Positions 24,106 to 60,500 of a DNA stretch of 64,000 bases are shown piece by piece. Made by a program: the position numbers and the translations under genes. This DNA comes from an archaeon (GTDB lineage: Archaea; Nanobdellota; Nanobdellia; Woesearchaeales; UBA9642). The first letter of the stretch is position 1; the number at the start of each line of letters is the position of its first letter. The stretch lies in contig JAGVGF010000002.1 of the NCBI GenBank assembly GCA_020057295.1, positions 96,001 to 160,000 of the forward strand. Direction: 5' to 3'. The notes under the pieces are model-generated. The model made no database searches, was not told where the DNA came from, and saw nothing but the letters and a program-made list of their open reading frames with translations.

Positions 24106-24427
24106 GACTCTCTCCAAAACTCGTAAGGACACAATTGTTTCTGTACGTCTGCCTAAAAGTTTAGTCGAAGAACTAAAAGATATTCAGCAAATAAATCATT
24201 TCATGGATTTAAGCGATGAGATAAGGTTTGTTGTTCGAAGATATTGTTTAAGCTTCCTAAATAGTCAGGATCAAAATTTAACACAAGCAAAACCTCCTAT
24301 AGAATTACTTGCAGAACAAAAACGTAAAGAAAAATTAATTGACGATCTTTCAAAAATTATTGAAAACTTAAAGGGAAACAAACAAACTATACCCGCTAAT
24401 CAAAATCAAAACAATTCAAATGAATAA
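24098..24427 (+). CDS. Ribbon-helix-helix protein with C-terminal helical extension
   Basis: IVSVRLPKSLVEELK...DLSDEIRFVVR. Confidence 0.8.
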   Translation: MSKTLSKTRKDTIVSVRLPKSLVEELKDIQQINHFMDLSDEIRFVVRRYCLSFLNSQDQNLTQAKPPIELLAEQKRKEKLIDDLSKIIENLKGNKQTIPANQNQNNSNE

Positions 24428-27400
24428 AAAAACAATCATCGGAATAGGAATATTCGTTATTTTAGTTACACTACTATTAACATTCGGATTAACTAAAACA
24501 GTAAATGCACAATCAATAATAACAAACAACAGCAATACAGCATTAAATAGCATAACATATCAATTAGATATTGCTGAGTTAAATCTTTCAAACATCAACA
24601 ATATGCAGTTCGATTCAAACACTAATACAACCACCATAACTAATATTAGTAATATAATAAATTATGAATGTAGTTTAGGAATAAATAATTATACTTATCT
24701 AAATGGAGGATCAACAACAACGTTAAACGCTTTAATAAATATAATGCAATCGTTAAACATTACATTAACAGATAATTATTATGCTTTGGCATTAAATTGT
24801 ACATATAATATAACTTCATTTAACACAACCACATATATTGTTTTATATTATAATGAAACGAGCAATGATACATACAACATTACTAATATCTCATCATATA
24901 ATGTTTCATCACAAACATTCATTCCTACAATAAAAAATATTTTAGTAGATACAAGCAATCCTATGATTTTATTGTATGCTCCAATAAATAGTAGCATATA
25001 TACAAATAATTCCAACACCACTGTTACACTAAATTTCACGATTAGTGATTTATCACAAACAAACTGTACGTTGTCTTTGAACAATAATACCGATAATTTA
25101 CAATCTAATATTACTAGTATTCAATATATTTTGCCTTTAGGAAATTACACATATAATCTATCTTGTATAGATGCGTTAAATAATTCAAACCTCAACAGTT
25201 CAAACTTTAAGGTATTAAGTAATGTGACACCTGTAGAAGATGTATTCTTAAACATTCAATTAACAAAACCCTCATTTGGTTTAGGTGAGATTGGACAGTA
25301 TATTATTAATGCAAATAATAATTCCAATGTTACAATAACCATTTGTCCTGTGGCTTCTGGATGGGTGCAATGTTATGTTACTCCTGTATTTGTAAATTAT
25401 ACTTATCCGCTAACACAAGCATTACCTTATACTAATAAAACTGGAAAGTATATGATTCAAGCCGTAATGAATTACAAAAATTATACTCTAAGCACCAATA
25501 CAACATACGATACAGCAAATACAATTACTGCTACTATAACTGCATCAAACATTACTGTTGGTGTTGGTAGTATAATAACATTCAATGCCGTAGCAAGTGG
25601 AGGAATTGGAACTTACTCTTACAAATGGACAATGCATGATAATACAAGATTTGATGGAACGTCCGCATATAAGAATTACACTTCATCAGGCACTTACAAA
25701 GTGAACTTGAATGTTAATGATAGTCAGGGAAATCAATACAATACATCAATAGATGTAGTAATAAAAAATTATTATACACTAACCGTTGTGGTTACAGATA
25801 AAGACACAGGTTCAAGAATTACTGATTCAAAAGTAGAAGTGAATAATGATATAAGACAAACAGATAGTAATGGTATAGCAACATTTAGACTATTAGACAA
25901 TTCATATGATATATATGTTTCAAAAAACAATTACGGAGGATATGTTAATAGTGTAGGATTGAGTGCTGATCGAACAGTATATATGAATATGTCATTCCAG
26001 GATGTTGTACCTCCAAGAATTACTTTATTAACTGATAATGATTTCGTATTCTCTCAAGATAATGTTAAATTAAAGTTTAAGGCTGATGATGCTACAAATG
26101 TTGCTTGTTCACTATACACAGCATCAATGAACGATAGTTGGTATACTCTAAAAGATTCTGGAGATAATTTACTTGCAAACACTGAATACACATTTGAGCT
26201 TACAAATTTATCATATGGAGGCTACAAGTGGCGTGTAGAATGTTTTGATACAGAAAAGAATAAAGGTGTTAGTGAAGAGAGAAAGTTTGTGATATCAGAT
26301 AGTAATACAGCTCTAGTCTTACAATATACTAACAGCAATTCTGATGCCATAAATACTGCATTAGATAATCTGAATAAGTTATCTGGTGAAGAATCAGAAG
26401 TTGCTGATATATTAACTGTACGTGAAGATTTAAAAGATTTGCTTGAAAGAATCAACAGAATGGACAAAGATATTCATGATCTAGCTTTCAGAAGAGATTT
26501 GGATGAAAAAGGAAAACAGGACGTTCAACAAAACCTTACCCAAACCTTAGAATATATGAAATATAATACTCCAATAAATATACAAATCAGTGATTCTAAA
26601 ACTTTTGTAAAATATATCAAGGATATTGATTTAAACATATTGCTTGAAGAGTATATAAGCATAAAGAATATGAATGTTAACAAAAAAGCATTCTTGGAAT
26701 CAACTAAGAGTGTTCAATCTAAAGCAGTAATTTCTACACGTGTAAGAAGTGTGGTATTACATTATCTTGATGGTAAAACTAAAGAAATAACTTTAGTCAC
26801 AAAAACTATTAAACCATCAACTTCAGATGATGAATTATTGTTTGAAAATTCTAAAACTATAACTTTTGTAGAAGTCGTTCCTAAAAGTATTGCATCATCT
26901 ATGAAACAATTGAACATGTTAAATAAAGAGTACACGGTCCTCAAAGATGATCCTGTTATAGAATTTGCCCCAAATATTAAAACTATAAATTATTATATTG
27001 ATAAAAAGGTTGATGCTCAAGATTTCCAAAAAGTTGATACTGTAATAATTGATAAAAATATTAATGCTTTAAGATCTCCTACAGGATTGGCAATACTTGG
27101 TGTTGATAATATTTCTGATATTCCTATAGATGGTCAAACTATAATGATAGTACTAATTTTAGTGTTGTTAATGTTCTATTTGGTTTTACATTTCGAATTA
27201 ATAGATAAATTACGTAGTATAGGATTTGGATCAAAAAAGAAAATCACGTATGTTAAAGTTTTAATTAACGATGCTCTCGATTATTTGGAGGCTGAAGATT
27301 ATGAGAAAGCAGCATTCGTATATAGAGAGATAAAATTATCTTATGAAAGTTCAAATAGTTTTGTTAGAAAAAAGGTATATACTGAATCTTATGAATTATG

Positions 27401-27596
27401 TAATAAATTAGATCTAAAATATACTGAATATTTACTAGAACATATAGAATCTTATATTAGACAGGAGAATAAAACTGCTGCAATATTAGAATTTGATAAG
27501 TTAGAAAAAACTTACAATAGATTAGATGACTCTTATAAGGCTAGAATTAGTGATAAATTCAAAAATGCCTTAGAAAAAATAAAAACAGTACTATAG
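24420..27596 (+). CDS. Membrane-anchored surface protein (Ig-like repeats, PKD domain, coiled coil, TM, cytoplasmic helical domain)
   Basis: Signal peptide (VNA-Q); PKD-like YSYKW...Y...GTYKVNLNVND; Cys-containing Ig repeats; TM IMIVLILVLLMFYLVL; charged helical C-terminus. Confidence 0.8.
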   Translation: MNKKTIIGIGIFVILVTLLLTFGLTKTVNAQSIITNNSNTALNSITYQLDIAELNLSNINNMQFDSNTNTTTITNISNIINYECSLGINNYTYLNGGSTTTLNALINIMQSLNITLTDNYYALALNCTYNITSFNTTTYIVLYYNETSNDTYNITNISSYNVSSQTFIPTIKNILVDTSNPMILLYAPINSSIYTNNSNTTVTLNFTISDLSQTNCTLSLNNNTDNLQSNITSIQYILPLGNYTYNLSCIDALNNSNLNSSNFKVLSNVTPVEDVFLNIQLTKPSFGLGEIGQYIINANNNSNVTITICPVASGWVQCYVTPVFVNYTYPLTQALPYTNKTGKYMIQAVMNYKNYTLSTNTTYDTANTITATITASNITVGVGSIITFNAVASGGIGTYSYKWTMHDNTRFDGTSAYKNYTSSGTYKVNLNVNDSQGNQYNTSIDVVIKNYYTLTVVVTDKDTGSRITDSKVEVNNDIRQTDSNGIATFRLLDNSYDIYVSKNNYGGYVNSVGLSADRTVYMNMSFQDVVPPRITLLTDNDFVFSQDNVKLKFKADDATNVACSLYTASMNDSWYTLKDSGDNLLANTEYTFELTNLSYGGYKWRVECFDTEKNKGVSEERKFVISDSNTALVLQYTNSNSDAINTALDNLNKLSGEESEVADILTVREDLKDLLERINRMDKDIHDLAFRRDLDEKGKQDVQQNLTQTLEYMKYNTPINIQISDSKTFVKYIKDIDLNILLEEYISIKNMNVNKKAFLESTKSVQSKAVISTRVRSVVLHYLDGKTKEITLVTKTIKPSTSDDELLFENSKTITFVEVVPKSIASSMKQLNMLNKEYTVLKDDPVIEFAPNIKTINYYIDKKVDAQDFQKVDTVIIDKNINALRSPTGLAILGVDNISDIPIDGQTIMIVLILVLLMFYLVLHFELIDKLRSIGFGSKKKITYVKVLINDALDYLEAEDYEKAAFVYREIKLSYESSNSFVRKKVYTESYELCNKLDLKYTEYLLEHIESYIRQENKTAAILEFDKLEKTYNRLDDSYKARISDKFKNALEKIKTVL

Positions 27597-27631: not shown

Positions 27632-30600
27632 ATGAATCGAAAAATTGATGATTTAATAGAGAAGCGTAAGGACAAAAAGAATTTATTAGCTATTGCTCTA
27701 ATATTTTTTATAGTTTTAGGTTCAATATTTGGATTGATATTGTTGTCAACATTTATTGGCTACGTTTTTGAAAATTATATCGCTGGACAGGCAGGTTATG
27801 TATATAATGTTGTTCTGGAATATCATGAATGTGCTACACTATGGTCTGGAGTTTATGGAGCGGCTGTAATGGTGTTGGGATATAATAATCAAGATGATGT
27901 AATCGTATCCTCATGTGGGATGTATGACCCGAATTTCCTGTTTAAATGTTTGCAACCAAATGCTGAACATGTATTGATGGCATCATTAACTCCTCCTGAT
28001 GCTATAGATTTTAACACTTTACAACCAGCTACTGCTTTAGATGTAGATAATTATTTAGGTGTTGATGCACTAAATATGATGTCTGGCAGCAAAACATTTT
28101 TACAAACAGTATCTTACACCATTGATAGTACACAATATAATGTTCCTGGAACGTATACTTATAACAGTAGTAAAAATCCTTCATTTGATTTAGGTATATT
28201 AAAGGATGGTAATGGTTCTCTTATATTTATTACTCATATAAATGCAAATTTTAGTAGAGGATTCAATAATAAATTATATAATTATCAGATGATACTTCCT
28301 GTACGTAATAATACTAATCCTGATTATTATTTTTTTACAGATCCAAGTTATGTTTGTCCAGCTGGAGAAGGTACTAATCCTAACTCTGGATATGTTATTG
28401 GTAATGTTACTAGTAATACTGGGGAAAGATTATCAGGAGTAATAGTTGATATCGCTGGTAAAACTACAGCAACAGATATCAATGGATTTTATAATCTTAC
28501 AGCATATGGCGGGAATTATTATATCTATGGTATAAAGACAGGATATCAAGCATATGTCAGCAATATCACTGTATTATCTGGCAACCTTACTGTTCATGAT
28601 TTTGTTATGATTCCTGCAACTATCCCTAATCCTAATACTGGTCCTGGTGTTGGCCCTGGTGTTGGTCAAGGTCCTGGTATTGGTCCAGGCCAAGATGTTG
28701 GTCCGGGTGAAGCTCCAAGAGTTCCAATTGTTGAACAGCCAAAAAAAATTGAAGGTATAGACTATATTATATCTATATCAAAAATTGATAGAAAACTAAT
28801 TATAGGAAATTTCCTACAAGAAATTATAGCATTTTATAGTTATAAGAAAAACACTGCAAGTTTACAGTTTAGTATAGAAGATGATAATAGTACTAATAGT
28901 ACTGATTTCATGTTATCCAAACTTATAAAATTAGATAAACCATCAATGGCAGTATTCCCAAATACAAATGATCAATTAACATTAACAGTTTTCGGGGATG
29001 GAATTCCTGGAGTATATAATGGATCATTAGTTATTGATGGAGATTTAAAAGAAAAGATACCTATACGAATAGAATTATTAGATAAAGAAAGATTGCCTGT
29101 GCAAGCATTATTAATAACTTTAGATTTAGATAAACGTAGCATATTCTCTAGTGATAAATTAAAATTTAAGACAGATTTACATAATTTATTGTCAGATCAA
29201 TCTTATCCTGTGTCTTTACAATTTACGATTCAGGATAGTAAAGGAAAAACTGTATGGGCTGATTCTGCTAATGTTTATGTTCAAACATCATTTTCATTAC
29301 TAAAATCTGCACAACTTCCAGATAATATTCCTACAGGCGATTATGTGTTAAGAGTTACGGCTAATTATTTAGGATTATCTGGTGGTTCAAGTACAGTATT
29401 TAGTGTGGTATTGCCATTTTACGAAGTAATATTCTGGGGATTAAAACTATGGATATGGGCTGCAATAATATTAGCATTACTAACCATTGGACTTGCATAT
29501 TTCTTAATTAGAAGATATATCCAAAGCAAAAAGAGATATGCATTCAAGCTTGAAATGTCAGAACTACCGAAACCTGGACCAAGATCTGCATGGGTTGGTA
29601 AAGTTGCAGAGACAGAACATAAGACATACTTCGATTTAGAACAATTTAAAGTACACACTATTGTTGCAGGAGCAACTGGTGGTGGTAAATCTGTAGCTGC
29701 ACAAGTAATTGTTGAAGAAGCACTTTTAAAGAATGTTGCAGTCATAGTGTTCGATCCAACAGCGCAATGGTCTGGAATGTTAAGAAAATGTAATGATAAA
29801 TTTATGTTGAGTTTATATCCTAATTTTGGAATGAAGCCATCAATGGCCAGAGCATTTAACGGTAATGTTAAACAAATAACTAATGCGCTTGAATTAATTG
29901 ATATTAAAAAATATATTAAGCCTGGAGAAATTCAAATATTAGCATGTAATAAATTAGATCCTAAAGATATTGATATATTTGTTGCCAACAGTATTAGAGA
30001 AGTATTCCACGCAAATTTTGGTGAAGCACCAGAACTAAGATTATTATTAGTTTACGATGAAGTACACAGATTATTACCTAAATTCGGAGGATCTGGAGAA
30101 GGATTCTTACAAATAGAAAGAGGATGCAGAGAATTCAGAAAATGGGGTATTGGAATATTAATGATTTCACAAGTATTAGCAGACTTCGTTGGACAAATTA
30201 AAGCAAACATAAACACAGAAATACAGATGAGAACTAGAGATGAAGGAGATTTAGGAAGGATTAAAGAAAAATATGGTGTAGAAGTATTACAAGGCTTAGT
30301 TAAAGCTAGTGTAGGTTCTGGAATGGTAGAAAATCCTACATATAATAGGGGTAGACCTTATTTCGTAGCATTCAGACCATTATTACACAATACACAAAGA
30401 TTACCAGATGAAGAATTGGAAAAATACAATAAATGGAATGAGATAATTGCAGATATGGGATATCAAATAGAACAATTAGAAGACTTAAAACAAGATGTAT
30501 TCGATCTAAAATTACAGTTAAAACTTTCCTTAGATAAGGTTAAATCTGGAAATTTCAACATGGTAGAAATATATTTACAAGAAGTAACTCCTAGATTAAT

Positions 30601-31525
30601 TAAACTTTGGGACAAATTAGGAAAGAAACCTAAGAAGAGAGAAGTAAAAACTGTAGACTTAAATGCATTAAAAGAAGAAATGCGTAAGGGAGAGGAAGAA
30701 CGTAAGAAGGCTGCAGCACAGGAAAAGAAAGATCATCCAGAAGGCGAAGCTGCAAAAGCTGAAGAGAAAAAAGTCTTAAAGTATGATTATGTTGTTGATA
30801 TTAAAGATAATTTAAATTTCAGTAATGGTGTTGCAATAGCAAGTTTACAAGAATTATCTGATGTAATGCCAAATATTACTGGGCCAACACTAAAACATCA
30901 TGTTGGAAAGGACAAGAACGAAATTGCAGATTGGGTTAGAGATAAATTTGGTGATGTTGAACTTGGAGAGAAATTACGTGTTTGTAAAACTACAGAAGAA
31001 TTTGTCAAAGTAATAACAGAAGATAAATCTAAAAATAATAAACCATTTACACCAACAAAATCAGGAGCTGCACCAGTAGCTGTTCCACCAACTCCATCTG
31101 TTACAGCGTCTCCTATAATTTCATCAGTTCCTATAACTCCACAAATTAATCCTGATACAGGAGAAGGTGAAAGTGTAGCATGGAACGATATAAAGCCAAA
31201 ACTTAAATCTTTGAATAGTGACGAACAGATAGCATTATTAGAAAAATCTGTAAAAAAATATCCTCAAGATATCAATATAAAATTCCCATTAGCATTATTA
31301 CATCATAAAACAAAAGATTATGACAAAGCAGAAAAAATGTATAAGGAAATACTAGAATTATATCCGAAAAATACTAAAGCATTATTCTACCTTGGTGGAT
31401 TAATGAAATCTAAAAAGAGTTATGATGATGCACTAAAATATTTTAATATATATCTTGAATTAAAAAAGAATGATTCAAAAGTTAAAGACTTAATAAAACA
31501 GATTGAAGAAAAAAATAAGAAATAG
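27632..31525 (+). CDS. Membrane-anchored HerA/DUF87-type P-loop ATPase with large ectodomain, DUF5752-like domain and C-terminal TPRs
   Basis: N-terminal TM, ectodomain, GPG linker, second TM; Walker A GATGGGKS, VIVFDP, Walker B LLVYDEVH, REFRKWG, MISQ; HHV..KNEIADW; TPR-like KAEKMYKEILELYPKN. Confidence 0.88.
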   Translation: MNRKIDDLIEKRKDKKNLLAIALIFFIVLGSIFGLILLSTFIGYVFENYIAGQAGYVYNVVLEYHECATLWSGVYGAAVMVLGYNNQDDVIVSSCGMYDPNFLFKCLQPNAEHVLMASLTPPDAIDFNTLQPATALDVDNYLGVDALNMMSGSKTFLQTVSYTIDSTQYNVPGTYTYNSSKNPSFDLGILKDGNGSLIFITHINANFSRGFNNKLYNYQMILPVRNNTNPDYYFFTDPSYVCPAGEGTNPNSGYVIGNVTSNTGERLSGVIVDIAGKTTATDINGFYNLTAYGGNYYIYGIKTGYQAYVSNITVLSGNLTVHDFVMIPATIPNPNTGPGVGPGVGQGPGIGPGQDVGPGEAPRVPIVEQPKKIEGIDYIISISKIDRKLIIGNFLQEIIAFYSYKKNTASLQFSIEDDNSTNSTDFMLSKLIKLDKPSMAVFPNTNDQLTLTVFGDGIPGVYNGSLVIDGDLKEKIPIRIELLDKERLPVQALLITLDLDKRSIFSSDKLKFKTDLHNLLSDQSYPVSLQFTIQDSKGKTVWADSANVYVQTSFSLLKSAQLPDNIPTGDYVLRVTANYLGLSGGSSTVFSVVLPFYEVIFWGLKLWIWAAIILALLTIGLAYFLIRRYIQSKKRYAFKLEMSELPKPGPRSAWVGKVAETEHKTYFDLEQFKVHTIVAGATGGGKSVAAQVIVEEALLKNVAVIVFDPTAQWSGMLRKCNDKFMLSLYPNFGMKPSMARAFNGNVKQITNALELIDIKKYIKPGEIQILACNKLDPKDIDIFVANSIREVFHANFGEAPELRLLLVYDEVHRLLPKFGGSGEGFLQIERGCREFRKWGIGILMISQVLADFVGQIKANINTEIQMRTRDEGDLGRIKEKYGVEVLQGLVKASVGSGMVENPTYNRGRPYFVAFRPLLHNTQRLPDEELEKYNKWNEIIADMGYQIEQLEDLKQDVFDLKLQLKLSLDKVKSGNFNMVEIYLQEVTPRLIKLWDKLGKKPKKREVKTVDLNALKEEMRKGEEERKKAAAQEKKDHPEGEAAKAEEKKVLKYDYVVDIKDNLNFSNGVAIASLQELSDVMPNITGPTLKHHVGKDKNEIADWVRDKFGDVELGEKLRVCKTTEEFVKVITEDKSKNNKPFTPTKSGAAPVAVPPTPSVTASPIISSVPITPQINPDTGEGESVAWNDIKPKLKSLNSDEQIALLEKSVKKYPQDINIKFPLALLHHKTKDYDKAEKMYKEILELYPKNTKALFYLGGLMKSKKSYDDALKYFNIYLELKKNDSKVKDLIKQIEEKNKK

Positions 31526-31587: not shown

Positions 31588-32814
31588 ATGAGTAAACTTT
31601 CAGAAATCACAAAACCAGAGAATAAATTCTATACTGTAGATGGTCAATCATTAGTAATATTACAAGATTTAGTGAATTATTTATTGATTTGTGATGAAGA
31701 TTTATATGCATATCATGTTAATGATACTAAGAATGATTTTGCAAATTGGGTTAGAGAAGTATTGGTTCATCCAGATTTATCAGAATCAATGATGAAATGC
31801 AAAAATGTTAAAGAATGTAGAAATATTTTATTAGAATTCTTAAAAATATTAGATAATAACTCTTCATCCATAAGTAAAGAGAAGAATTTTTACACTTATG
31901 ACGGTATTAGATTAAGGAATCTACACGAATTATATTATTATATTAATAATTCCGATGAGCACGCGTATAATATGCATGTTAATTCAGAAAAGAATGATTT
32001 TGCTAATTGGATTAATGATGTTTTATTATTTTCTAAATTAGCCGTACAATTAAGAGAGATAAAAGATCGTGAAGAATTTCTACATACTTTAAAACAATTT
32101 TTAAAAGATAATTTAAGTTATAATGTGGATAATCATAAAGATGTTGCTGACTCTGAAAATAGAAATGTTGAAGCAACTGTTGAAAAAGACATAGAAAAAA
32201 AGATAGAGTCTAAAAAATTATTTATCGAAAAACCTAATATCGAAGAGTCTAAACTTCAAGAGCCTGTTGCGGAATCTAAAGTTTCAGTCGTAAAATCTGA
32301 CTCGGTAAGTATCTCTAATCCTATAGAAAAAGTTGTAAAAATTCAAAAAGTGGAAAATGCTATAAATCTAAATACTAAACTACAACCTATTCCAGAAGAA
32401 CCAGAGCCAGAAAATAAAGATAATCAAACAATAGATATAAGTAAGTTTAGACAATTTACAGATGAAGAACTCGAAAAGTTCGTAAATTTTTCAAGACATG
32501 AAACTGTTGATACTGTTAACATAAAGGTCGAATATTTAAAATCCGTGCTTCAAGAATTGAAAAATATGATTAAAGATTTGAGAAGATCAGAAAAAGATCC
32601 ATTGGTTGCAGATTTGCTTGCTAGGGCTATAGCTCCGAAAATAGATTATTACGCATTAACTAAAAGCGTGGATGATTACAATTATATTATTACTTCAATG
32701 AAAGAGATACAGCATGAGATTGAAGAATGTGACGTTCAAAAACATTATAATATTGCTGAAGAAATATTGAAAGACTTGAAACTTCAAGGAATAGCTATGA
32801 AGAAAGCATTATAA
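31588..32814 (+). CDS. Cytoplasmic protein with two DUF5752-like domains and a C-terminal helical domain
   Basis: Two FYTxDG...HVNxxKNDFANW units. Confidence 0.8.
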   Translation: MSKLSEITKPENKFYTVDGQSLVILQDLVNYLLICDEDLYAYHVNDTKNDFANWVREVLVHPDLSESMMKCKNVKECRNILLEFLKILDNNSSSISKEKNFYTYDGIRLRNLHELYYYINNSDEHAYNMHVNSEKNDFANWINDVLLFSKLAVQLREIKDREEFLHTLKQFLKDNLSYNVDNHKDVADSENRNVEATVEKDIEKKIESKKLFIEKPNIEESKLQEPVAESKVSVVKSDSVSISNPIEKVVKIQKVENAINLNTKLQPIPEEPEPENKDNQTIDISKFRQFTDEELEKFVNFSRHETVDTVNIKVEYLKSVLQELKNMIKDLRRSEKDPLVADLLARAIAPKIDYYALTKSVDDYNYIITSMKEIQHEIEECDVQKHYNIAEEILKDLKLQGIAMKKAL

Positions 32815-34006: not shown

Positions 34007-34525
34007 ATGATTGATGATAATCCAAAACTGAAATTTTTGTCAAAAGTTCCTCCTCAGAATAATTTTGGTTTTTCTAATGGAAAAGTAGCTGAGGATATTC
34101 AAGGATTATATGATATCATAAAGGGTTCTGATGACAATAATTTTTATGAACACGTTAATGATACTAAGAATGATTTCGCCAACTGGATAAGATCTTGTGT
34201 GTTGCATATAGAATTAGCTGATAAACTTTACAATATTAAGAAAAAAGAAGATTTTTTGCAAGCATTAGGTCAGGAGATTGAAACAATAAAGAATTATTCC
34301 ATTGCTCCAGTAGTTCCAACGGCATCTGTTAATCTAGCTCCTCCTATCTCTAGTCCTATCATACAGTCTGTTCCCGCGGCTTCTGCTGTGCCTGCAAGTT
34401 CTCCTGCTCCTTCGAACCAAACTACAAATCCTGTTGCTATATTAGTTGAGGAAATATTTGAATTTGAGGAGATATTCAAATCTTTAATAGATGAACTTGA
34501 AAAAGAAATATTTTCTGAACAGTAA
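34007..34525 (+). CDS. DUF5752-like domain protein with Pro/Ala/Ser linker and acidic C-terminal helix
   Basis: FGFSNG...HVNDTKNDFANWIR. Confidence 0.8.
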   Translation: MIDDNPKLKFLSKVPPQNNFGFSNGKVAEDIQGLYDIIKGSDDNNFYEHVNDTKNDFANWIRSCVLHIELADKLYNIKKKEDFLQALGQEIETIKNYSIAPVVPTASVNLAPPISSPIIQSVPAASAVPASSPAPSNQTTNPVAILVEEIFEFEEIFKSLIDELEKEIFSEQ

Positions 34526-47900: not shown

Positions 47901-47903
47901 TAA
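35988..47903 (+). CDS. Giant secreted surface protein (~3970 aa): ~20 Ig-like repeats, DUF2341, 2 CARDB-like domains, C-terminal shared domain
   Basis: Signal peptide after M33 of the track ORF (VYA-V); repeated C-x-L-x-I/L-D/N-G...G-x-H/Y-x-W-N-V-T-C-x-D; PWWNTSWNYRK; PDLYI...ELNESNNNA; very many N-x-S/T sequons; no C-terminal TM. Confidence 0.88.
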   Translation: MNNNKNFGNRMLMSVLFLLVILLSFSVHSVYAVKLQSELKDTNIILSLDDSKFNGVDLGENYELMMSLGNQNYKYFGGMIFPIIINTNGEGLYSFKLLNKSNQEILSEISVSKTFDCDKLSLNVAPSTKSSNNDVGTYSVGEEISIHLFEGQIALSNIPQFIIISIIAQNNSDKVYRLSGDITSKFIPSESGTYTVSLYCNSGAIYSKDIVVKSSDASSDVSMGNVSIIEPYTQNNDLVHSNIENNGANYSIKRITVKNSRNEVFIGDVKAYNIRSEAPVGIRQKILSLLSSNSGKEIIGKIEMDLNGVSGLENTKLSLNDVDSTSNTVLIESISKKNIEEKNTINLEGSIEGSIVDAYALDLSALSFTNGTLTKTAKGRVLWKCKDWNFAQQTCFGKWIEVMNIRPGEDYSFEVSPNDPGFIETGLATINTDKSIYQIGESAKISAVVLDTQGYLVSNATVNIMITTPGNTVYFFDNVAESKRGIYEIIFNHNDIIGNYTMQVSAYKNETNLGMTQYVNYSMISDFSVMEYYDFDIIRNIPITTDPFRKPLYAKILIHPLNENITNYNFTEVIPSDLLVIDAPGATISNAGNETHLTWTGLNGNVTLNYTTQPPLITPNLLILGKAFIEYVINSATYIFVEFRNWFIAVDPTVTRDQGLVVYADRTDDGFIKYRNWTGSTLQSEVNSGVDFGNRIAWLKFRCLVNREQCILVGSDTGADINFNVFYTNNWTWSTNTQLDGSSETSQSNIDLDCESLSGQCIVVYEDSTNNDAVFVYRIWNGTDISGINTVTITGGENNEIDWINLYPQKGTNNIGIAIQNDGGGVNTDTPAIYSAIWNGTNFTNWRTLTANSPADGTSRTFYRHYDCAWEGGTGYFGCFYANDTLNAILFDRFNGTNWNYMGRIFNTSGEPREISACGQEGLSSFNHSYIGLMFCDSANDLDGTIWNGTSLLKTTHAASPAQNTNAECGDSNKGATEYAQNFKCTWEDDGSKALFVWVNNGVTYLTSGSYTKATSTFSNPNWTSGTQIVANGAGALRSAYLVSNPASNSVFLTYTDGARDGGCSLWTGTTWDGSGCNSATVFETTGPNVGVAWLVFDWFRNPPPQPEITIITPTNSIGYINYTGITNPSSTSIAWDNGTTALPPPGASAPITGVEFPSAEYVKITSSNDIRHITTVTGTAGRYAYQSFNFTVTESTVNMQSIIVTHEGYATQTTSLTASQFYIYGYNWSSDSYVLLKTVFASSVDVTSEVTIDAGFNDFVRNRQMYVLVQGSFAIGVGANARADINTDYMGLTVETIPMLSQNITVNASAIDDDGISKCEWIFYNSTNGNPNSLIGMINTFGDYYYNFSSISGVPDGYYNLTVFCNDTLSARTNESVYVYIDSTPPAIILYNPTNNSNITVNYALFSWNATDILYANLVCNLTIDGTVRATNVVSAHAENISRNITSITDGTHYWNVTCRDDAGNRNISQTWRFDSDTIGPAVTLNSPSASSYTNKNPLDLNFTATDSHTIVNCSLYLDGSLNQTITSVTSGIMTNFTFTNLNQGVHNWNVSCYDSFGLRGNSTSRNFTYDTILPTVYLNISTGYIFNGTIPILNYTVIDNIDSNLTCNITVNSVIELANIASTNNTLISRSVPLLDGFKQWNVTCVDDAGNVNTSETRIFQVIGGPLVTLQTPVNGTIGNGTNITLKYYAQDGNGVANCSLYINDVLNQTNTSITSGANNTFLISSLNEGRYNWSVTCYDTNGYPGYSSTWQIISDRSKPSINLSAPISGQVLTTTPTYFNFTLLDFYSTNATCNLTIDGIVNAGNQNFVALNGSVTTRSQTVTNGLHYWNVTCIDLGYNFNTSLTRNFTINVTFPVSVTVVADKTQYQEGEIAQINITTKNETSGNIATNITLDYIYTNNTYTDIPWWNTSWNYRKSIVLNQTNNTLISSKAILVNVTVPYGTITNCHELRVVSDSDLSFVDSNVITGDDVTFCYIYFIGTVTANAVNENNYHVYYGNVNASYSTQSVYVSGNYILEQLFYDDFSTASITSNWTVSSGWDASNANPLAGDHAHIQGTVTDATIRLTNSLNLLNYDFVNLSFTWGIDASWDAGAPLDYLRYDYSNDSASTWTGSGGVGTLNGNGVAQTQTVNTQLNSSYKINGFNLRFRATTNNANEDGGFDTFNITGQYAVQSSVNSNVGNHQVWILRTTNVTNSSGQYNTTFTTLGRTYGNYSAVGYAYPPNVNLRQGWGYDYFDLIADQFGPVITLLYPTNATTLRSGNITFNYTAVDYANNVANCSLYINGVFNQSNSTINESITNNFTSELFEGQYYWLINCFDSLGSQTNSSRYNLTIDDTPPIVSLISPNNSVLPSGTITFNFNVTDNFDTTILCNITVDSGNYSKLFNTSNGVNSTTIANITDGLHYWNMTCYDNINNNATSTTLNFTTATIPIVTLHSPATNYGVNSTNITLYYNLSSVNVDNCSLVLNGQYNQTVNSTQIPFKANDGQNVFNLTGMGYGIYNWTVICFDSNNFNGTDTTRIFHLDNAFPIINLSYPANNQTIFSRNINFTFNVTDIDDVLVCNLTIDGVVNKSNQNISSNNSGKVGSIYVTGLSVTNHNWSVACADNVGFSTTSVTWNFTIDSSVSISLTSPANNFLSSSGSVNFIYVPSSPADFDLGFCDLYINDSIYATHVALTSGSPDTFAVAGLGEGRYNWSINCTDSVGKNGASETRNFTLDMTGPIVTNYYPNGNVFTNSSVFFNWSATDNYDANMSCTILVNGTAQSPIVYSLNGTVTNHTYSNFRDGLLFWNVTCTDDAGNNGTSSLKNFTVQEPPAITLNSPSNNNRTKNRNITFYYTPTDNSGNISSCSIIFDGLLNQTNSTQLASGVQRNFTINNIAAGNHTWSINCTDPSGNIGSSINYTFYIDLYAPTIVLDRPIEGDFLNTNDVFFNWTATDYSGTTINCSLYVDNLFKNSTARTSGSSFNITAYNLTDGPHNWSVNCSDDLANYLMSETRNFTINQPDLYIDNNRIIFNNTNPDENSTINITVNVTNIGGVPANNILVEFWDGLPNVGTYIGNDTGTVAVNGSRIYSVLWNITLGYHNIWVIVDPYNTQGELNESNNNATKNISILRSIINSPLNGTASINSNVTINFTLQDFTTGNINYSVFVDGSFNGQNGSVVDNVSTLLNVTLTQGLHYIQIQARDLLGRYKNSTRVYITIDYTAPQPVINTVNYTWYNYSIPQINISATDNVYTNISYRVYVNGTENINGTITNGTSKFVNLSTLSDGYYVLIMEAWDFLNNTANSTPKYIYVDTTKPTITLNSPGNNANITNRTVQLNFTVNDNLANNATCNITLDGLIVSFPTVNISQPYIYTANNLIEGTHYWNVTCMDQALNINTSVTNSFNVYIAPNITLVSPSNNQWSNTANNTFYFNVSDETGLENCSIILNGVINQTKTTAQLVNNGTNNFTITEMISGNHTWSIECYDNTLYHTYSISSNRTLYVDLIRPQPNIETLNNSWFNTATPLITFNITDNMALTINYTLFVNGSGNTNGVVTNGSTISVNLQPLQNGTYSVILQGTDLAGNVQNSTPIIIYIDTILPSINLTYPANDTNITASYTNLNFTPSDNMASYLMCNVTLDGNNVGLNINVTNGQNQNVSVSSINGGYHYWNVTCMDQAGNKNTSQTFRFYIQMPDLYINTSSIYFSNNNPIENETINITATIYNIGNIDAFNFIAEIRAINQTGPIVANVTLNLSAGNYTNITGSYMLPIGDTSFYVLVDTPITTNGSVQEENESNNNASKTIHVGLWEYVVGTTIDKLALINNLSIYDWIVNNATGSNLYVTDADSNINWFTLQALGRNISNGTSGTDFYTFDTKINSTILTDSVNRTYTLGGQPIETINYTVFRRFITNIPIVNSTNNTNFKTGLLWDTGDGGIAYNGTQDVVLISKISKSTQGYNATVDYELRVPATLRSYKGSVNQVVFYGEIN

Positions 47904-50900
47904 TGAATATACATTTGCCTGAGTATCGGAAGAAGAATATAATACTTGCTGAAACACTTAAGAATACATCTTTATTTGTATTCTTTGTGACTTTATTATT
48001 TTTAATAGTCACTCCCTCAGTTACAAGTATTCCGATGATGAGTTTTGACAAAAATTATTATGTAACAAATGATGTTGTTAGCATATTAACAAAAGATCCT
48101 TCTCCATTGACTATATCTGGTTCATTAACTCTTGAAGTTTCAATAAAGGAAGATACTAATTATTATTTTAAATATCTTGGATCTGTTAATGAGATTATAT
48201 CATTTATTCCCACACAGTCTGGGGAATATATTTTTAGATTATATAATGAAAATGGAAATTTAATTGATGAAAAGAGTTTCCTTGTCTATGATAAAAGTGT
48301 CGATTCGTGTGCAACTCATAAACTAGGATCTCAAATATTGATTGATTTAGAAGAATACGCTTTTGATTTAGGATCAAAACTTCCTTCGGAAATAGAATTA
48401 ATATATTCAAATGCATTGTCAACTAACAAAATAGTTTATAATGGCGGGATAACTCCACAGATATATTATACTCCTAGTATTATTGGAAAATACTCGTTAT
48501 ACGCTGACGGAATATATCTTGCTTGTTATGACATAATAGATGATTTCGCAATAGAAAATTCTAAGATAATACACTCTACAAATGAAAATTTAAACAATAT
48601 TACTTATTTAAATAATCAAATCAGTAATCAAACTAGCAATAGTATGAACAAAACTACTTTTATTAATGGATTAAATATTTCTCTTATCTCAAACCAGTAT
48701 GATTCAAAAAACACTTCTTCAATTGTTATAGATCTTAATAATTCGCTTATTCAGTCAGAAACAGGAAGATTAAAGAAAAAAATTATTCTATTCAAGATAA
48801 AAAATAGTCTAAACGAAAGTTTGAACGCTGATACTTTTGTTTATGAGAAAGAAAAAATCGTTGGTACAATTCAAAACACTAATTCAAATAACAAAGATTA
48901 CGCTTCGAATGTAAAAGATAATATTTTAGAAAACAATTTATTATTAAATACGAGGATTTCTGTTATTGATTATACTGCAAACACTTCAATTTCTAATAAT
49001 GCTTACACTCCTGATTTTCTCGTTATTAATGATACAAGCGCGAGTTTACAAAATGCATCACTTGACGCAGATATAGAATTTGTTTCTGGAAGTGTTAAGA
49101 AAATAAATTTCAAAAATTTGGAATATAAAGAAAATATGGAAGTAGGAGTTGATGAAGTTACTGAAAAATTATCTTCTAATAAATTATTGGAAAAATCAGA
49201 AAAAAAAGAGTTGAAAGCTTACGCTGTAAATCTTTATGATTTGAATTTTACTGCTGCTTCTTTTACAAGTATTGCTGTAGGAACAGAATTGTGGAAATGT
49301 AAAGATTGGAATTTTACGACACAATCATGCTTTGGAACATGGAGTAAATTAATGGATATTATTCCTGGTCAAGAATATAATGTAAGTTTATTCCCTGGAG
49401 ATCCAGGATTTATTGAAACATTTGATGTAAATGTAGCAATAGATATAGATATTCTTGCTCTTGATAATAACACTGTGGTTCTAGCATGGATAAAGAATGG
49501 AACAACCGTAACCGGAAATTTTGAAATATGGAATACTAATGGATCCATAATTGTTAATGATACAACATTTGATGCAGGAATGGATACTCAAAGTCGAGTT
49601 TCGCTTGATTTAATTAATACTAATGATTTTATAATTGCTTCAATTGATGGTTCAACAAATATTTCAAATTTCTATTTTTATAATCGTACAGGCAGTATGA
49701 TTCAAAGTGCAACAACAATTAGTGCTAATGTTGGAGATTTTAATGATTTATCTGTATGTCAATTGGGCGATAGATTTATTTATTCTTATATTGATGCAAA
49801 TCCTGCACAGTTTGATGGTTCATTTCAAATAGTGAATAACTCTGGAAATTTTATAGGTACAATAACTGATGTTGATACAACAGTTACAACAACTACTGCT
49901 CTACAAAACTTTGTATCTTGTGCTGCAATTAATATTACTAACTGGGTATATTTATACTATGATGTTACATCATCAGATGTAACACTTAATGCACGTACAA
50001 ATACTGGAACTAATGTTGTTCTAACTGATTTAAATGCTAATGTAGGTACAACATCACAAGTTGCCGTCGCAACATCAAGAAATGAATATATTGCGAATTT
50101 ATATTATAATTCCGTTGCTGCAACTCAAGATGTAATATTAAATATACGACAATTGAATGGCGCAGTTCTTACTAATATTGCAACAGTTACTCCTGATGCG
50201 ACAGCTGGCGCAAATATTCGTCTGGATATTGCAGAAATTGATGCTTTAGGAACCAGCTACTTTGTTCCGACGTGGTATGATGCAGGAGATACAACAATAA
50301 AAGCGGCAGTGTACAATGAAACCGGAGGACAAATAACTGCTCCATTTATTGTTACAACCACACCTAACACCGGATATAGAATTGTTGCAGTTGCAGGATA
50401 TAATTCTAATGCAGAACTCGGACTTTGCAATGGAACATTTGTAATTGCATATACAAATAGTAGTGGAAATGCCATATTTAATAAATATTTAATTAATGGA
50501 TCTCAATGGAATGGAATTTGTCCTGATGTAACGCCTCCAACTGTCAATCTAACGTATCCTTCAAATGATTCTATTGTCGAAAATAATAATATTTCATTTA
50601 ATTTCACAGTAATTGATGATAGAGATGTTGTACTCCCTAATTGTAGTTTATATACAAATTTCACAGGAAATTTCATAATTAACAAAACAATATATAATGT
50701 AACTTCTGGAATAGAAACATCAATTAATGTCACAAATATCGATGATGGAAAATATATTTGGAATATTAGATGTTATGATAATTCATCAAATAACGCTTTT
50801 GCCATAAATGCTCCAAACAATTTTACGTTGTATATTAACAAAAATATTCCCTCAATAACCAACCCTCTAATAAATAGAACTGTTTTAAATCAAAGTAATT

Positions 50901-53900
50901 ACGTGCAACTTAATGTGACAATTAGTGATAGTTTTGGAATAAGCAATGCATTATTAACGATGTTATATCCTAATGGTACAAAAATAAATTATACTCTTAG
51001 TAATTCTGGAAATAATTATTATTATAATTTTAATAATACTGTTCAATTAGGGATATATAACATTACTTTAGTTTGGGCAAATGACACTTTAGGACAATCA
51101 AATCAAAATAACACGTTGATTTTATCTTTTAATGTTACTGCAAGCCCTCCGTCGGATTTCAATCTTTTAGCCCCTACGAATGCAACAGTTTCCACTAATC
51201 TAATTCCGAATATGAATTGGCAGCAAACAACTGATGAAACATTTGCAAATTACACGTTAATTCTAGATAAGGATTCAACATTTGCAACTCCAGATTATAC
51301 TTATGCAATTTCTCCAATAACAAATACTTCTTACATATTAGGATTTGCACTTGATGTAAATTCTGTATATTATTGGAGAGTTATAGCATACGATATTTTT
51401 GGAAATAGTAAAAATTCAACAAACGATTTTATATACATCACAGATAACTCAGGCCCACTTATTACTCTAAACATTCCTGAAACTAATTCTTTTGTACTTA
51501 TGAGCAATGTGTTATTTAATTATACTCCGATTGATGCAAATACTATTTCGAATTGTACATTATATACAAATGCTACAGGAACATTTTCTCCAAACCAAAC
51601 AAATTTTACTATTGCAAATACTCTTCCTAATTATTTATCTATGAACTTAAATGACGGATATTATTTATGGAATATTTTATGTTTTGATCAAGTTGGAAAT
51701 TATAAATTTTCAAATAATAATTTTACATTAAAAATTGATACTACTCCTCCTAATGTTACAATACTAAATCCTCAAAATAATACTTATGAAAATAATACTA
51801 ACAATGTGTTATTTTATGGAAATGCAACAGACGTAATGACTGGTGTGGACAATTGTTCTCTAATAATAAATAACACTGTTAGACAAACCAAATCCGTAAC
51901 TGAAGGAATAGTTTTTAATTTTACAGAATTTGTTTCTAATGGTAATTATGTATGGAACATAAATTGTACAGATTCAAATGGATTTATTGGAAGTTCAGTT
52001 AATTATTTTATCAATGTAAGTGTCGTTGATACTAATCCTCCACTTATACAATTGAATACTCCGACAAACAATGAATATATTAATACCTCGACAATAATAT
52101 TTAATTATACTGTAGATGATGCCTCAGGAATAGAAAATTGTTCTATTTTTATAGGTGGAATATTAAATTCTACAAATTATACTGTTAGTAATCATCAAGA
52201 TAATTTATTTACTATTTCAGAATTTACTTTCGGAACAAAAAATTGGCGTATAGCGTGCTATGATAATACTACAGAAAGAAATTATCGTCTAAGTTCTACA
52301 AGAAATTTCATTGTAGATTTAACAAATCCTGTTGTGACATTAAATATTCCAGGAAATTCAACAACTCCCTTATATCTAAATTACTCGACTATAGAATTTA
52401 ATTATACTCCTAGTGATGCAAATCTTTATTCTTGCGCATTATATGCTAATTTTACAGGATCATTTATAGAAGAACAAATAAATTTAACTCCAACAAATTC
52501 TCAAAATAATTATTTTACTCAAACAATTAATGACGGTAATTATGCTTGGAATATTTTATGTACTGATTTATCATCAAGAAGTAGTTTTGCTTTACAAAAT
52601 TATTTAATATTAGTTGATACACATGCTCCTGATTACTCAAATATTAATGTTTCTCCATATTCTAATTCGCCGTATAATTCATCAAAAAAATATTTCTTTA
52701 ATATTACTTGGACGGATAATTTTGAAATTTCTCAAGTTATTTTTGAATCAGATATTGATTCGTATGCATTATATGGTATTTCTGGAAATTTAACAAATTA
52801 TACAATTAACAGTTCTGACTTAGGAAGTTCAAAAAATTATAGTATTAATTTTACTAATATTGCTGCAGGAAATTATGTTTATACATGGTATGCAATAGAT
52901 GCTGCAGGAAATTTAAATAAGACCGAGCTTTTAACTTACAATGTTTCGCAAGAAAATTCTAGTGTGAATTTATTAATTAATGGCTCAGATGCCAATTTTA
53001 GTATTAATGAAGGAAATTATGTTAATTTAACAGGAACATTATTAGTTCCATTAATAGGAGTAATAGATTTGTATGTGGGTGAATCATTAATAAATTCAGG
53101 AATTGCTCCGATTTATAATATTACATTATTTGAAAATCCGGGTATATATAATGTGACTGCATTTTATAATTATTCTCAAAATTATTCTTCAAGTTCTGAT
53201 ACACATTTTGTTATTGTGAGTGATATAAGTTCTCCGCTAATAACGTTAAATGTTCCCATAACTAATTCTCCAATAGCTTCAGGAGAAATAACTTTGCAGT
53301 ATATTGTGAATGATAAATCCGATATTGCTAATTGTAGTTTATATATCAATGGAACATTAAATCAAACAGATAATTCTATTACTAGAAATGTGACGCAATT
53401 CTTTGTAGTTTCCTTACCCCAAGGAAATTACACCTGGACTGTAGATTGTTATGATAATTCTTCAAACCATAATTACAATATTTCTACTACATGGATATTC
53501 AGGGCACTTGACGCATCAGTCATTAATCTAGTCGTGTCTCCATTAGAATCACAATATGAAATAGTAGAAAATGCTATAATCGAGATAAATACTACCGGGC
53601 AATTTAATGACACATTAAACACTAATTTTACAGCTGATATAATATATGGAAATACTTCCCTTCCTTGGTGGAATACGAGCTTTAAGTATAGAAAGAATCT
53701 GTTATTTACAGAAAATTATAATAATTCAAGAGATGTGACTATGGATGTAAATATAACAGGATTAAGCGCATTAATAAATAATTGTACTACTCAAACAAGA
53801 ATTGTCGAGATTGTTATATATAACGGAACGATAAATCAATCTATTATTCCATTTGAAATTCTTTCAGGAGATGATAGTAATAATTGTTTTGTAAGATTTA

Positions 53901-58000: not shown

Positions 58001-58786
58001 GTGAACAGAATGAACCAAAAATTGGTTTTATACACATTGTTAGCGTTATTAACTATATCTATGGTAAGCGCTATACCAACAGGACCGCAATCTATGACTG
58101 AAATTGCAAGCAGTAGATGGCCTGAAGCAGCATATTTAGCTACAAATAATTCCGCAATAGCCGGTAATGTTACAGAATTAACTCTAAATGGTTCAACTGT
58201 CACTAGAACTTGGCAAGGTTACTTTGGTAATATAACAGGTATGGTTGTATTGGGAGATTCAGCTAATAATACACTATACGATTGGAGCGTTGCAAGTCCA
58301 CACGGTCAAGTATACGCACTTAAGAGTTCAGGAATTCCAGCATGGTCAAGCATTAGATGCGCAAATCAAACAGAACTACAAGCAGAAGATACATTATTGG
58401 GTGTAAATTCATCAGTAGATGTAGATGCTGTAAATAGAACTTTTGTTGTAGGCGGTGCACCAGACCAAATAACAAGATTTGGAGCAACACAATTAACTCA
58501 TCCTCTATTTTATGTTGGAAATGTATCAATAGTTAATAATACGTGTCCAGTAGCAGTAATGTATAATAGTACGACACAACCATCACCTTACTTCAAAGAA
58601 GTATTATTATCAGATGGAACAGCAGATCTAATATATACTGGTATAATCGCTCACACATTGAATCCTTTTGCAGAATCAGATGGTTTCGATGATAGAACAC
58701 ATGATTTCGAGATGATCGTTGGTGAAAATGGACATGGTACAGATGTTGCTGTAACGACATACTGGTTCTACCTAGAGCTAACATAA
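58001..58786 (+). CDS. Secreted ~240-aa repeat-family protein, subfamily A (putative filament subunit)
   Basis: Signal peptide VSA-IPTGP; AIAGNVTE, TWQGYFGNITG, HDFEMIVGENGH, YWFYLELT. The start may be ATG 58010. Confidence 0.85.
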   Translation: MNRMNQKLVLYTLLALLTISMVSAIPTGPQSMTEIASSRWPEAAYLATNNSAIAGNVTELTLNGSTVTRTWQGYFGNITGMVVLGDSANNTLYDWSVASPHGQVYALKSSGIPAWSSIRCANQTELQAEDTLLGVNSSVDVDAVNRTFVVGGAPDQITRFGATQLTHPLFYVGNVSIVNNTCPVAVMYNSTTQPSPYFKEVLLSDGTADLIYTGIIAHTLNPFAESDGFDDRTHDFEMIVGENGHGTDVAVTTYWFYLELT

Positions 58787-59963: not shown

Positions 59964-60500
59964 ATGAAGATTATCAACTCAACAAATAACACGTATGTAA
60001 GTGATTATAGTTCTAGTTATACTGCTAATTACACCCTAATTTTATCTAACGCAAATTCAATAACACCCCGATTTTCTTTAAATAAGATATTAGTTCAGGA
60101 TAATGAAACAACTCTGCTAAGAGAAAAAGAAATACTTATACCATTGAGTATTATACAAAACAACAGTTCATTAGAATCAATAGTTCTGTACTTAAAGGAT
60201 GTTGTAGGATTAAAATTCTCAGAGATAGCACGAATACTAAACAGAGATCAAAGAACAGTGTGGGTAACATACAACAATTCTAAACGGAAAAATATCAAAC
60301 AAATCCTCTCTAAAAATACTATATTCATTCCATCAAACATATTCTCATCAAGAAAATTCAGCATTTTAGAGACAATAGTTCTACATCTAAAAACGAACGA
60401 AAACATGACATTTACTCAAATTGCAGAATCATTAGGAAAAAATTATCGCACAATATGGACTGTATACAGAAGAGCGATGTTTAAGGTAAATTATGATTAA
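59964..60500 (+). CDS. Duplicated HTH (sigma70 region-4-like) DNA-binding protein
   Basis: Two IP.S...LE.IVL.LK....F..IA..L....RT.W..Y repeats; 8-bp overlap with the next gene. Confidence 0.8.
   Translation: MKIINSTNNTYVSDYSSSYTANYTLILSNANSITPRFSLNKILVQDNETTLLREKEILIPLSIIQNNSSLESIVLYLKDVVGLKFSEIARILNRDQRTVWVTYNNSKRKNIKQILSKNTIFIPSNIFSSRKFSILETIVLHLKTNENMTFTQIAESLGKNYRTIWTVYRRAMFKVNYD

Follow-up and report, generated by a model that had tools for sequence, protein, structure and literature searches.

The window analysed in this study is a stretch of 64,000 nucleotides (G000:C2:96001-160000) from the archaeal genome G000, which comprises 1.2 Mb in 6 contigs and is estimated to be 100 % complete. 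Close homologues of its proteins carry the source label 'Candidatus Woesearchaeota archaeon', and the source organism is therefore considered a DPANN-type archaeon. The locus encodes an ATPase of the HerA/FtsK superfamily with a large predicted ectodomain and, further downstream on the same strand, a family of small secreted proteins, here designated as subunits (Table 1). The central finding concerns the relation between the two: from sequence comparison it is practically certain that residues ~54-235 of the ATPase are a colinear and near full-length homologue of the ~240-aa (amino acid) secreted paralogues. Full-text searches of the literature found nothing on this ATPase/subunit system.

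The ATPase chain contains only two hydrophobic segments by Kyte-Doolittle analysis, residues 18-44 and 598-625; for the first transmembrane segment (TM1), windows above 1.6 begin at residues 14-29. Lysine and arginine are distributed unevenly around these segments, with 7 in residues 1-17, 0 in 45-60, 0 in 580-597 and 6 in 626-645. Following the positive-inside rule, which is established knowledge, the two segments and their charged flanks place the N-terminus inside, residues 45-597 outside and residues 626-1297 inside the cell. This arrangement agrees with the paralogues, because their homologous domain follows a Sec-type signal peptide, and 11 of the 14 N-X-S/T sequons of the chain are found within residues 178-463. 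The subunit-like domain is thus very probably exposed on the outside of the cell, with motor core and tetratricopeptide (TPR) tail inside. An extracellular position had been claimed in the initial annotation, and a cytoplasmic placement, which would have contradicted it, was not borne out.

On the cytoplasmic side, the HerA-like motor recognized earlier was confirmed by PF01935 (DUF87 / HerA central domain), which scores 41.2 bits against a cut-off of 23.2, and PF05872 (HerA_C) is matched with 26.6 bits against a cut-off of 22. The Walker A motif GATGGGKS is located at about residues 672-679 and Walker B within LLLVYDEVH. The closest solved structures to the core are HerA chains (E 4.1e-05), with an alignment that spans the Walker B / ISQ region. 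We gathered 32 length-matched ATPase homologues among 298 candidates, and all 32 contain PF01935 and also match residues 40-250. In a set of 11 orthologues and paralogues that were checked, Walker A is present in all 7 that contain the core, and in the orthologues it lies 50-75 residues past TM2. The NCBIfam equivalogs for the HerA DNA-repair helicase, anti-phage HerA, TraD and CedD gave at best 17-29 bits, with cut-offs of 366-970. By these profile matches the ATPase is a member of the HerA/FtsK superfamily that does not reach the cut-off of any specific equivalog family.

The earlier reading had the subunit-like domain followed by an immunoglobulin-like (Ig) domain, a GPG linker, a TM helix and the motor. 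This order was found again, but an extracellular region of ~230 aa (residues ~370-597) between the linker and TM2 had been left out. The Ig domain belongs to the PF13620 type (carboxypeptidase regulatory-like / transthyretin-like Ig). Matches to residues ~373-620 of the ATPase query are numerous and include paralogous ATPases that align from residue 377 or 507 onward. A segment of an 8055-aa open frame elsewhere in the genome (G000:C4:35295-35999) also resembles residues 380-616 of this second extracellular region (E 2.4e-12).

In a MAFFT alignment with the four paralogues of the window, the ATPase shows 21-26 % identity and 17 columns are invariant; all seven motif pairs that had previously been matched by eye are present in the sequence and stand in register. 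Pairwise BLASTP aligned residues 180-222 of the ATPase with the paralogue at 60493-61269 (E 2e-07, 18/43 identical) and residues 18-235 with the paralogue at 61698-62414 in a single colinear alignment (E 0.005, 43/233 identical). The small homologues gathered number 212 among 1273 candidates. For the profile-profile comparison by hhalign, 31 ATPase orthologues (residues 46-245) were compared with 48 small subunits devoid of their signal peptides. This comparison, suggested as a check in the initial annotation, gave a significant match with a probability of 98.78 % and E 9.8e-17 over 170 columns, in which ATPase residues ~54-235 are paired with subunit residues 71-254 of 258 (template positions 28-211 of 215). 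In nine controls, with the subunit alignment reversed or its columns shuffled 8 times, the probability was at most 1.9 % and E at least 0.026.

Reciprocal searches with hidden Markov models (HMMs) over all 3605 open reading frames (ORFs) of at least 60 aa in G000 gave the same picture. The subunit HMM retrieved the six paralogues and then the ATPase (E 1.2e-6) before the next match at E 0.4, and the ectodomain HMM retrieved the ATPase and then all six paralogues with E values from 4e-12 to 5e-3, the next match being at E 0.14. Nearest to the ectodomain is the paralogue at 60493-61269 (E 4.1e-12 with the ectodomain HMM). A genome search with the single paralogue at 61698-62414 returned 6 matches at E <=10, all of them paralogues and none of them the ATPase; the relationship is thus remote and is detected only with profiles or with the closer paralogue. 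Under the hhalign alignment, the secondary-structure elements of the AlphaFold models of ATPase and subunit are colinear. Hence the claimed full-length homology stands on hhalign with its controls and on the reciprocal HMMs, and the coordinates originally assigned to the domain, 27779-28345, correctly correspond to residues 50-238.

Both families also have features of their own. The subunits carry a Sec-type signal peptide with n-, h- and c-region and an alanine at position -1 before an (I/V/L)-P-x-G-P motif, followed by a mature part of ~215 aa which is beta-rich and rich in N-X-S/T sequons. This mature N-terminus and an extension of ~20 aa have no counterpart in the ATPase, where the 27-residue signal anchor leads almost straight into the first conserved strand and subunit residues P46 and G48 remain unmatched. 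The invariant cysteine pair C136/C183 of the subunits is not kept in the ATPase, which has conserved cysteines elsewhere (C67, C95, C106 and C242, each at least 90 % conserved), and the two lineages may have gained disulfides separately. Several positions of the predicted binding pocket are invariant across both families, namely W71, T155, F156, Y177, N178 and G210. In a quick maximum-likelihood tree, which came with a long-branch warning and in which the small subunits were mostly relatives of one paralogue, a very long branch (SH-aLRT 100, lengths 3.5 and 3.9) set all 31 ectodomains apart. This separation suggests that the fusion is old and did not arise by recent capture of a single paralogue.

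The subunit was modelled by AlphaFold as a beta-rich domain with two short helices at a pLDDT (predicted local distance difference test) of 78.5. Stretches below 50 comprise residues 42-49, 64-71 and 73-85, including the first conserved strand. The model of the ATPase N-terminal part (pLDDT 79.5) has the same order of elements, and here residues 50-66 are below 50. A complex was then predicted from ATPase residues 45-250 and the mature subunit of 60493-61269, each with its own alignment, together with three controls. The ipSAE values (interaction prediction score from aligned errors) were 0.85, 0.81 and 0.86, compared with 0.00 for the best control. The mark applied to this score is reached by 58 of 80 solved complexes and by 2 of 110 mismatched pairs, counts that hold roughly here, where own alignments were used. 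Between runs, at least 68 % of the contacts agree and the partner pLDDT is at least 73; the model contains 194-202 contacts versus 0 confident contacts in the controls.

The predicted interface on the ATPase comprises residues 52-69, 71-75, 95-97, 149-155, 174-181, 211-213, 219 and 221. In the model, the ATPase strand 52-69 packs against the subunit hairpin 88-105 and the C-terminal strand 253-257, and the subunit loop 107-112, which ends in D-W, meets ATPase residues 71-75, 95-97, 174-181, 211-213, 219 and 221. The interface strand coincides in both families with the stretch of pLDDT below 50 in the monomer models (ATPase 50-66, subunit 64-85). Within the ATPase pocket, W71, G73, T174, T176, F211, N212 and Q219 are invariant in 30 orthologues; in 48 subunits, W88, G93 and W112 are invariant and D111 nearly so. 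Mean column conservation is 0.78 at 39 interface residues versus 0.70 at 167 others in the ATPase, and 0.74 at 32 interface residues versus 0.67 at 182 others in the subunit. The complex models make it fairly likely that the ectodomain directly binds a subunit, and the binding is predicted to occur by beta-strand complementation. Since several positions are invariant in both families, subunits appear able to offer the same surface to each other, and with the shared N-terminal strand, hairpin and pocket residues the contact could repeat head-to-tail.

Searches beyond the genome point to a family of considerable size. The subunit profile matched 1276 representatives at 50 % identity with E <=1e-3, 457 of them with E <=1e-30, which makes the family large and, in these matches, confined to Woesearchaeota-type archaea. 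Of the 301 genomes in a sample of the phylum, 84 gave a match, all of them from the order of the window, and 217 gave none. Neither Pfam nor NCBIfam contains a family that the subunits match above noise, a search of the subunit profile against PDB chains found nothing below E 0.15, and relatives in the ESM Atlas fall only into unnamed Woesearchaeota/Nanobdellota clusters. A Foldseek search of the PDB with the subunit model, which still included the signal helix and the unplaced strand, gave 0 matches at E <=0.001. In both fold searches with the ATPase N-terminal model, most of the matches fell on the Ig domain at 246-332; Gram-positive pilins and MSCRAMM proteins gave long alignments with root-mean-square deviations of 17-24 Å at TM-scores of about 0.2, and these were not accepted as matches to the subunit-like domain. 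An identity as type IV pilin or archaellin was discarded as well: these proteins have a class III signal peptide and keep its hydrophobic helix in the mature protein, whereas the subunits have the wrong type of signal peptide and a beta-rich mature part.

Among the 150 best representatives of the family, 18 are longer than 330 aa (350-2359 aa), and in 18/18 the domain is located at the extreme C-terminus. It is preceded by Ig-like or beta-helix/NosD regions, the latter in 2 of 9 scanned proteins. The subunit domain is therefore a module that occurs in three settings, namely alone, as the C-terminal part of larger surface proteins and as the ectodomain that comes first in the ATPase. A search for longer fused forms returned 10 proteins with no ATPase among them, which is weak evidence. 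As a candidate function in the long members, the Nup98-type autopeptidase S59 (PF04096) was considered; it matches in 6/9 at E <=0.001 (P0218, P0258, P0263, P0265, P0279 and P0292), 100-200 residues upstream of the subunit domain, and only P0218 passes the cut-off (31.0 versus 28.4 bits). Judged from these weak sequence matches, self-cleaving cargo is possible in the long members, a reading on which nothing further is based here.

The conservation of the gene neighbourhood was studied by BLASTP against the window proteins in 11 loci from 8 other genomes of several families. A recurring set emerged which consists of the PKD protein, the ATPase, the coiled-coil protein, DUF5752-module proteins, giant proteins, an ArsR-type regulator and pairs of a helix-turn-helix (HTH) gene and a subunit gene. 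In all eight loci that cover this side (L011, L012, L013, L015, L016, L019, L020, L021), the gene immediately before that of the ATPase or ecto-protein encodes a homologue of the PKD protein, and homologues of the giant proteins are found within the cluster in L015, L016, L017, L018 and L019. The HTH gene at 59964-60500 overlaps with its end the start of the subunit gene at 60493-61269 by 8 nt, and such HTH-then-subunit pairs recur, often repeatedly, in L011, L012, L013, L014, L020 and L021. The protein with two HTH units may be a dedicated regulator of each subunit gene. A module of ~65 aa resembling DUF5752 is common to the ATPase tail and three cytoplasmic neighbours (31588-32814, 34007-34525 and 56514-57683); the ATPase copy matches the two repeats of the first of these with E 6e-08 and 3e-07 in BLASTP. 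This module may dock partners on the motor. Full-text searches of the literature found no paper mentioning DUF5752.

Table 1. Genes and protein features of the locus, with positions in the window unless a contig is given; residue numbers refer to the ATPase.
Position	Strand	Feature	Evidence or remark
24420..27596	+	PKD surface protein, 1058 aa: N-terminal hydrophobic segment, PKD, C-terminal TM, cytoplasmic helical tail	PF18911 PKD_4 E 4.2e-09
27632..31525	+	HerA/FtsK-superfamily ATPase, whole gene; bitopic, large ectodomain	3894 nt, 1297 aa; PF01935
27683..27763	+	TM1, uncleaved N-in signal anchor, residues ~18-44	hydropathy, charge, modelled helix 15-50
27779..28345	+	subunit-like ectodomain, residues 50-238, including conserved N-terminal strand 52-69	hhalign, reciprocal HMMs
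28379..28621	+	transthyretin-like / carboxypeptidase-regulatory Ig domain, residues ~250-330	
28634..28726	+	GPG(V/I)-rich linker, residues ~335-365	sequence; pLDDT <50 at 331-353
28739..29422	+	second extracellular region, ~230 aa, residues ~370-597	matches in other surface proteins and paralogous ATPases
29423..29506	+	TM2, residues ~598-625, then K/R-rich cytoplasmic flank	hydropathy, charge
29594..30661	+	cytoplasmic HerA/FtsK-type P-loop core, Walker A GATGGGKS, Walker B VYDEVH	Pfam DUF87, HerA_C, FtsK_SpoIIIE
30809..31000	+	~65-aa cytoplasmic module, DUF5752-like	BLASTP to repeats in 31588-32814
31214..31504	+	C-terminal TPR repeats, residues 1195-1291	TPR_19 E 1.6e-09, other TPR families
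31588..32814	+	cytoplasmic protein, 408 aa, two DUF5752-like modules	homologue adjoins ATPase in L014
32871..33926	+	coiled-coil protein, 351 aa	homologues (36-57 % identity) downstream of ATPase in L011, L014, L015, L016, L019
35892-47903	+	giant surface protein, 4003 aa	Ig-like domains; Big_13, Big_7, CARDB, MG2
47903-56356	+	giant surface protein, 2817 aa	no Pfam match
58001..58786	+	subunit paralogue, 261 aa	
58931..59662	+	subunit paralogue, 243 aa	
59964..60500	+	two sigma-70 region-4-like HTH units, 178 aa	PF08281 E 6.1e-09
60493..61269	+	subunit paralogue, 258 aa	used for structure and complex models
61698..62414	+	subunit paralogue, 238 aa	
63148..63780	+	ArsR-type HTH protein	PF01022 E 5.5e-07; homologues in L011, L018
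63794..64000	+	fifth subunit paralogue, start only	runs past window end; G000:C2:159794-160495
G000:C2:160543-161247		sixth subunit paralogue	outside window

In the phylum sample, the N-terminal 623 residues of the ATPase served as query. At E <=1e-5, 115 of the 301 genomes match, many of them via the second extracellular region only. A strong match (E <=1e-30) was found in 44 genomes besides G000, and 42 of these 44 also have a subunit match, the two without being G155 and G249; among the other 256 genomes a subunit match occurs in 41. These counts are raw and ignore the kinship between genomes, and the tally of strong ATPase matches was made by hand. Among the matches listed, ATPase and subunit genes are located on one contig in at least 15 further genomes and within 50 kb in at least 14. 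Variants of the fusion were detected as well. In G213, a complete 889-aa protein with TM1, the subunit-like domain and TM2 and without Walker A adjoins a separate 776-aa TM-ATPase (L012, G213:C13, 6238-8904 and 3428-5755). In G024, two neighbouring genes (L016, G024:C1, 4801-6780 and 7313-10852) represent a second ATPase which lacks the subunit-like domain and, next to it, the full fused form. That ecto-module and motor are either fused or neighbouring argues that they act together.

Taken together, there is about an even chance that the ATPase is the membrane base of a Woesearchaeal cell-surface assembly, and we see the balance similarly poised for a polymer or lattice of subunits that is anchored on it. 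According to this model, the ectodomain of the ATPase, which crosses the membrane twice, would bind a free secreted subunit, with the N-terminal strand 52-69, which has no confident place in the monomer model, complementing the subunit hairpin 88-105 and the C-terminal strand. By repeating this contact head-to-tail, subunits would build up a fibre, sheath or lattice whose root is the ectodomain, and larger proteins ending in the subunit domain could be incorporated through it together with their cargo. Since HerA/FtsK ATPases form hexameric rings, the base would present up to six docking domains. The motor might shift the TM helices and ectodomains and in this way add, remove or remodel subunits; alternatively, it might push a substrate through the ring. 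In the initial annotation it had been proposed that the domain nucleates or anchors the polymer and couples it to ATP hydrolysis. Docking of a subunit is now backed by the complex prediction (ipSAE 0.85/0.81/0.86) and by the conserved genomic linkage. Nucleation or anchoring can reasonably be inferred. That the polymer is coupled to ATP hydrolysis is a guess based on the domain arrangement, and a direct energetic link between hydrolysis and subunit assembly appears rather doubtful.

Several observations weigh against this model. Two homologous beta-domains can score high in a complex model without binding each other in the cell, and the hetero-dimer of ATPase and subunit is the sole contact that was modelled, the subunit polymer being extrapolated from it. 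The difference in conservation between interface and other residues is small, and the subunit dipeptide D111-W112 is not kept in the ATPase, where NFLFKC is found instead. The co-occurrence counts are confounded by relatedness, and some of the subunit matches may represent the ATPase's own domain, for example in G189, where the sole match has E 8.9e-7. Given their Sec-type signal peptides, the subunits need no ATPase for export, nor do the known donor-strand fibres need one.

Three other explanations have to be considered beside an anchored polymer. The ATPase could be a translocase. Its six ectodomains would then serve as template for a tube of small subunits, and DNA, protein or nutrients would travel through this tube between DPANN cell and host. 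This explanation shares the docking step with the model above and differs in the use of ATP; we regard it as unlikely. Its relatives FtsK, VirD4 and those of the CedB and TdtA type are translocases, and the HerA/FtsK core shows weak P-loop matches to the TraD (E 3.4e-07) and CedD (E 2.8e-06) models, although NCBIfam matches remain far below the cut-offs. With two TM helices in each chain, a hexamer would have 12, and the cluster includes giant Ig-rich surface proteins such as one would expect for attachment to a host. The cluster yielded no substrate, nuclease, relaxase or pore-forming partner, however, and a ring or tube of subunits is without support in any of the results. Proteinaceous nanotubes between DPANN cells and hosts have been observed by cryo-electron tomography, but in the available part of that report they are assigned to the host, from which they originate, and not to the DPANN cell, and no genes are named there (PMC11329633).

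A second alternative is an S-layer or sheath: here, the small glycosylated paralogues would form a two-dimensional surface lattice instead of a fibre, with the ATPase ectodomain as one membrane anchor, much as SlaB anchors SlaA in Sulfolobus. The subunits are in line with this in being Sec-secreted, sequon-rich, present as several paralogues and widespread in the order, and the ectodomain is predicted to bind one of them. A static anchor, however, leaves the conserved ATPase, the TPR tail and the cytoplasmic partners without a role, the lack of a subunit-profile match in 217 of 301 phylum genomes is odd for a general wall protein, and the resemblance to SlaB is that of a very common Ig fold, so we consider a wall lattice quite unlikely. 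In the remaining case, the domain of ~200 aa would be lectin-like or substrate-binding, with the small proteins as free binders and the ATPase ectodomain sensing or capturing the same ligand. In that event, a contact between subunit and ATPase could not be deduced from the homology. Compatible with a common ligand are the lack of a matched fold and the fact that diverse surface proteins carry the domain at one end (2 of the 9 scanned have beta-helix/NosD regions). It is nevertheless improbable in our view, as the modelled interface is large, reproducible and formed by the most conserved strands of both families (194-202 contacts versus 0 confident ones in the controls), and the N-terminal strand, which neither monomer model places, is easier to reconcile with strand exchange than with a self-contained lectin.

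In comparison with known systems, the ATPase resembles VirB4/TraC, the Ced/Ted-type ATPases, VirD4/TraD, EssC/EccC and TdtA of Thermus in being a membrane-tethered P-loop ring ATPase of the same superfamily which is clustered with secreted or surface components. Its P-loop matches to TraD, CedD, TraC and HerA models are weak, with family-specific scores far below the cut-offs. We know of no ATPase among VirB4, VirD4/TraD, EssC, CedB-type and TdtA proteins that carries an extracellular copy of its secreted partner's fold. Conjugative pilins are small helical membrane proteins, in contrast to the beta-rich, Sec-secreted subunits of ~215 aa described here. More similar are the donor-strand fibres, that is chaperone-usher pili, TasA, archaeal bundling pili and Sulfolobus threads: they likewise consist of beta-rich Sec-secreted subunits with several paralogues, and their N-terminal strand pairs with the sheet of a neighbour, as predicted here for the pair of ATPase and subunit from a strand that is unplaced in the monomer. 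The two-part structure of FimH-type adhesins recalls the long family members, with cargo ahead of the C-terminal subunit domain. Donor-strand fibres differ in that they assemble without an ATPase; no fold or sequence match between them and the subunits was found, where the fold comparison covers Foldseek and VIA matches to a model that still contains the signal helix and the unplaced strand, and the cluster showed no usher, chaperone or SipW-type peptidase. FtsEX, MacB and LolCDE are alike in concept, a cytoplasmic ATPase being joined through two TM helices to a working extracytoplasmic domain, but they are ATP-binding cassette (ABC) dimers and not HerA/FtsK rings, and there is no homology. 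SlaB of the Sulfolobales has neither an ATPase nor a domain homologous to SlaA, and the match to it reflects the common transthyretin-like fold. No counterpart of the system has been described, and it appears to represent a novel type of surface machine in archaea.

What sets this system apart is a single chain in which a cytoplasmic motor is physically joined to a copy, outside the cell, of its own secreted partner. If docking and the polymer model hold true, it would be, to our knowledge, the first case in which a HerA/FtsK ATPase is connected with a surface assembly of beta-rich, Sec-secreted proteins. A further-reaching and distinctly improbable version has the six ectodomains template a six-fold tubular polymer that acts as an ATP-driven conduit or appendage for the exchange of DNA, protein or nutrients with the host. 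If true, this would constitute a new class of prokaryotic secretion or uptake machine, the extracellular parts of which are unrelated to types I-IX, type IV filaments and donor-strand pili. The subunit family itself, with 1276 representatives, no Pfam or NCBIfam model and no matched fold, is likewise a candidate for structural work. Contact with host cells is a necessity for DPANN archaea, and their surface machines are almost unknown; provided that docking and the polymer model are correct, the cluster would offer a direct handle on the host interaction of the Woesearchaeales.

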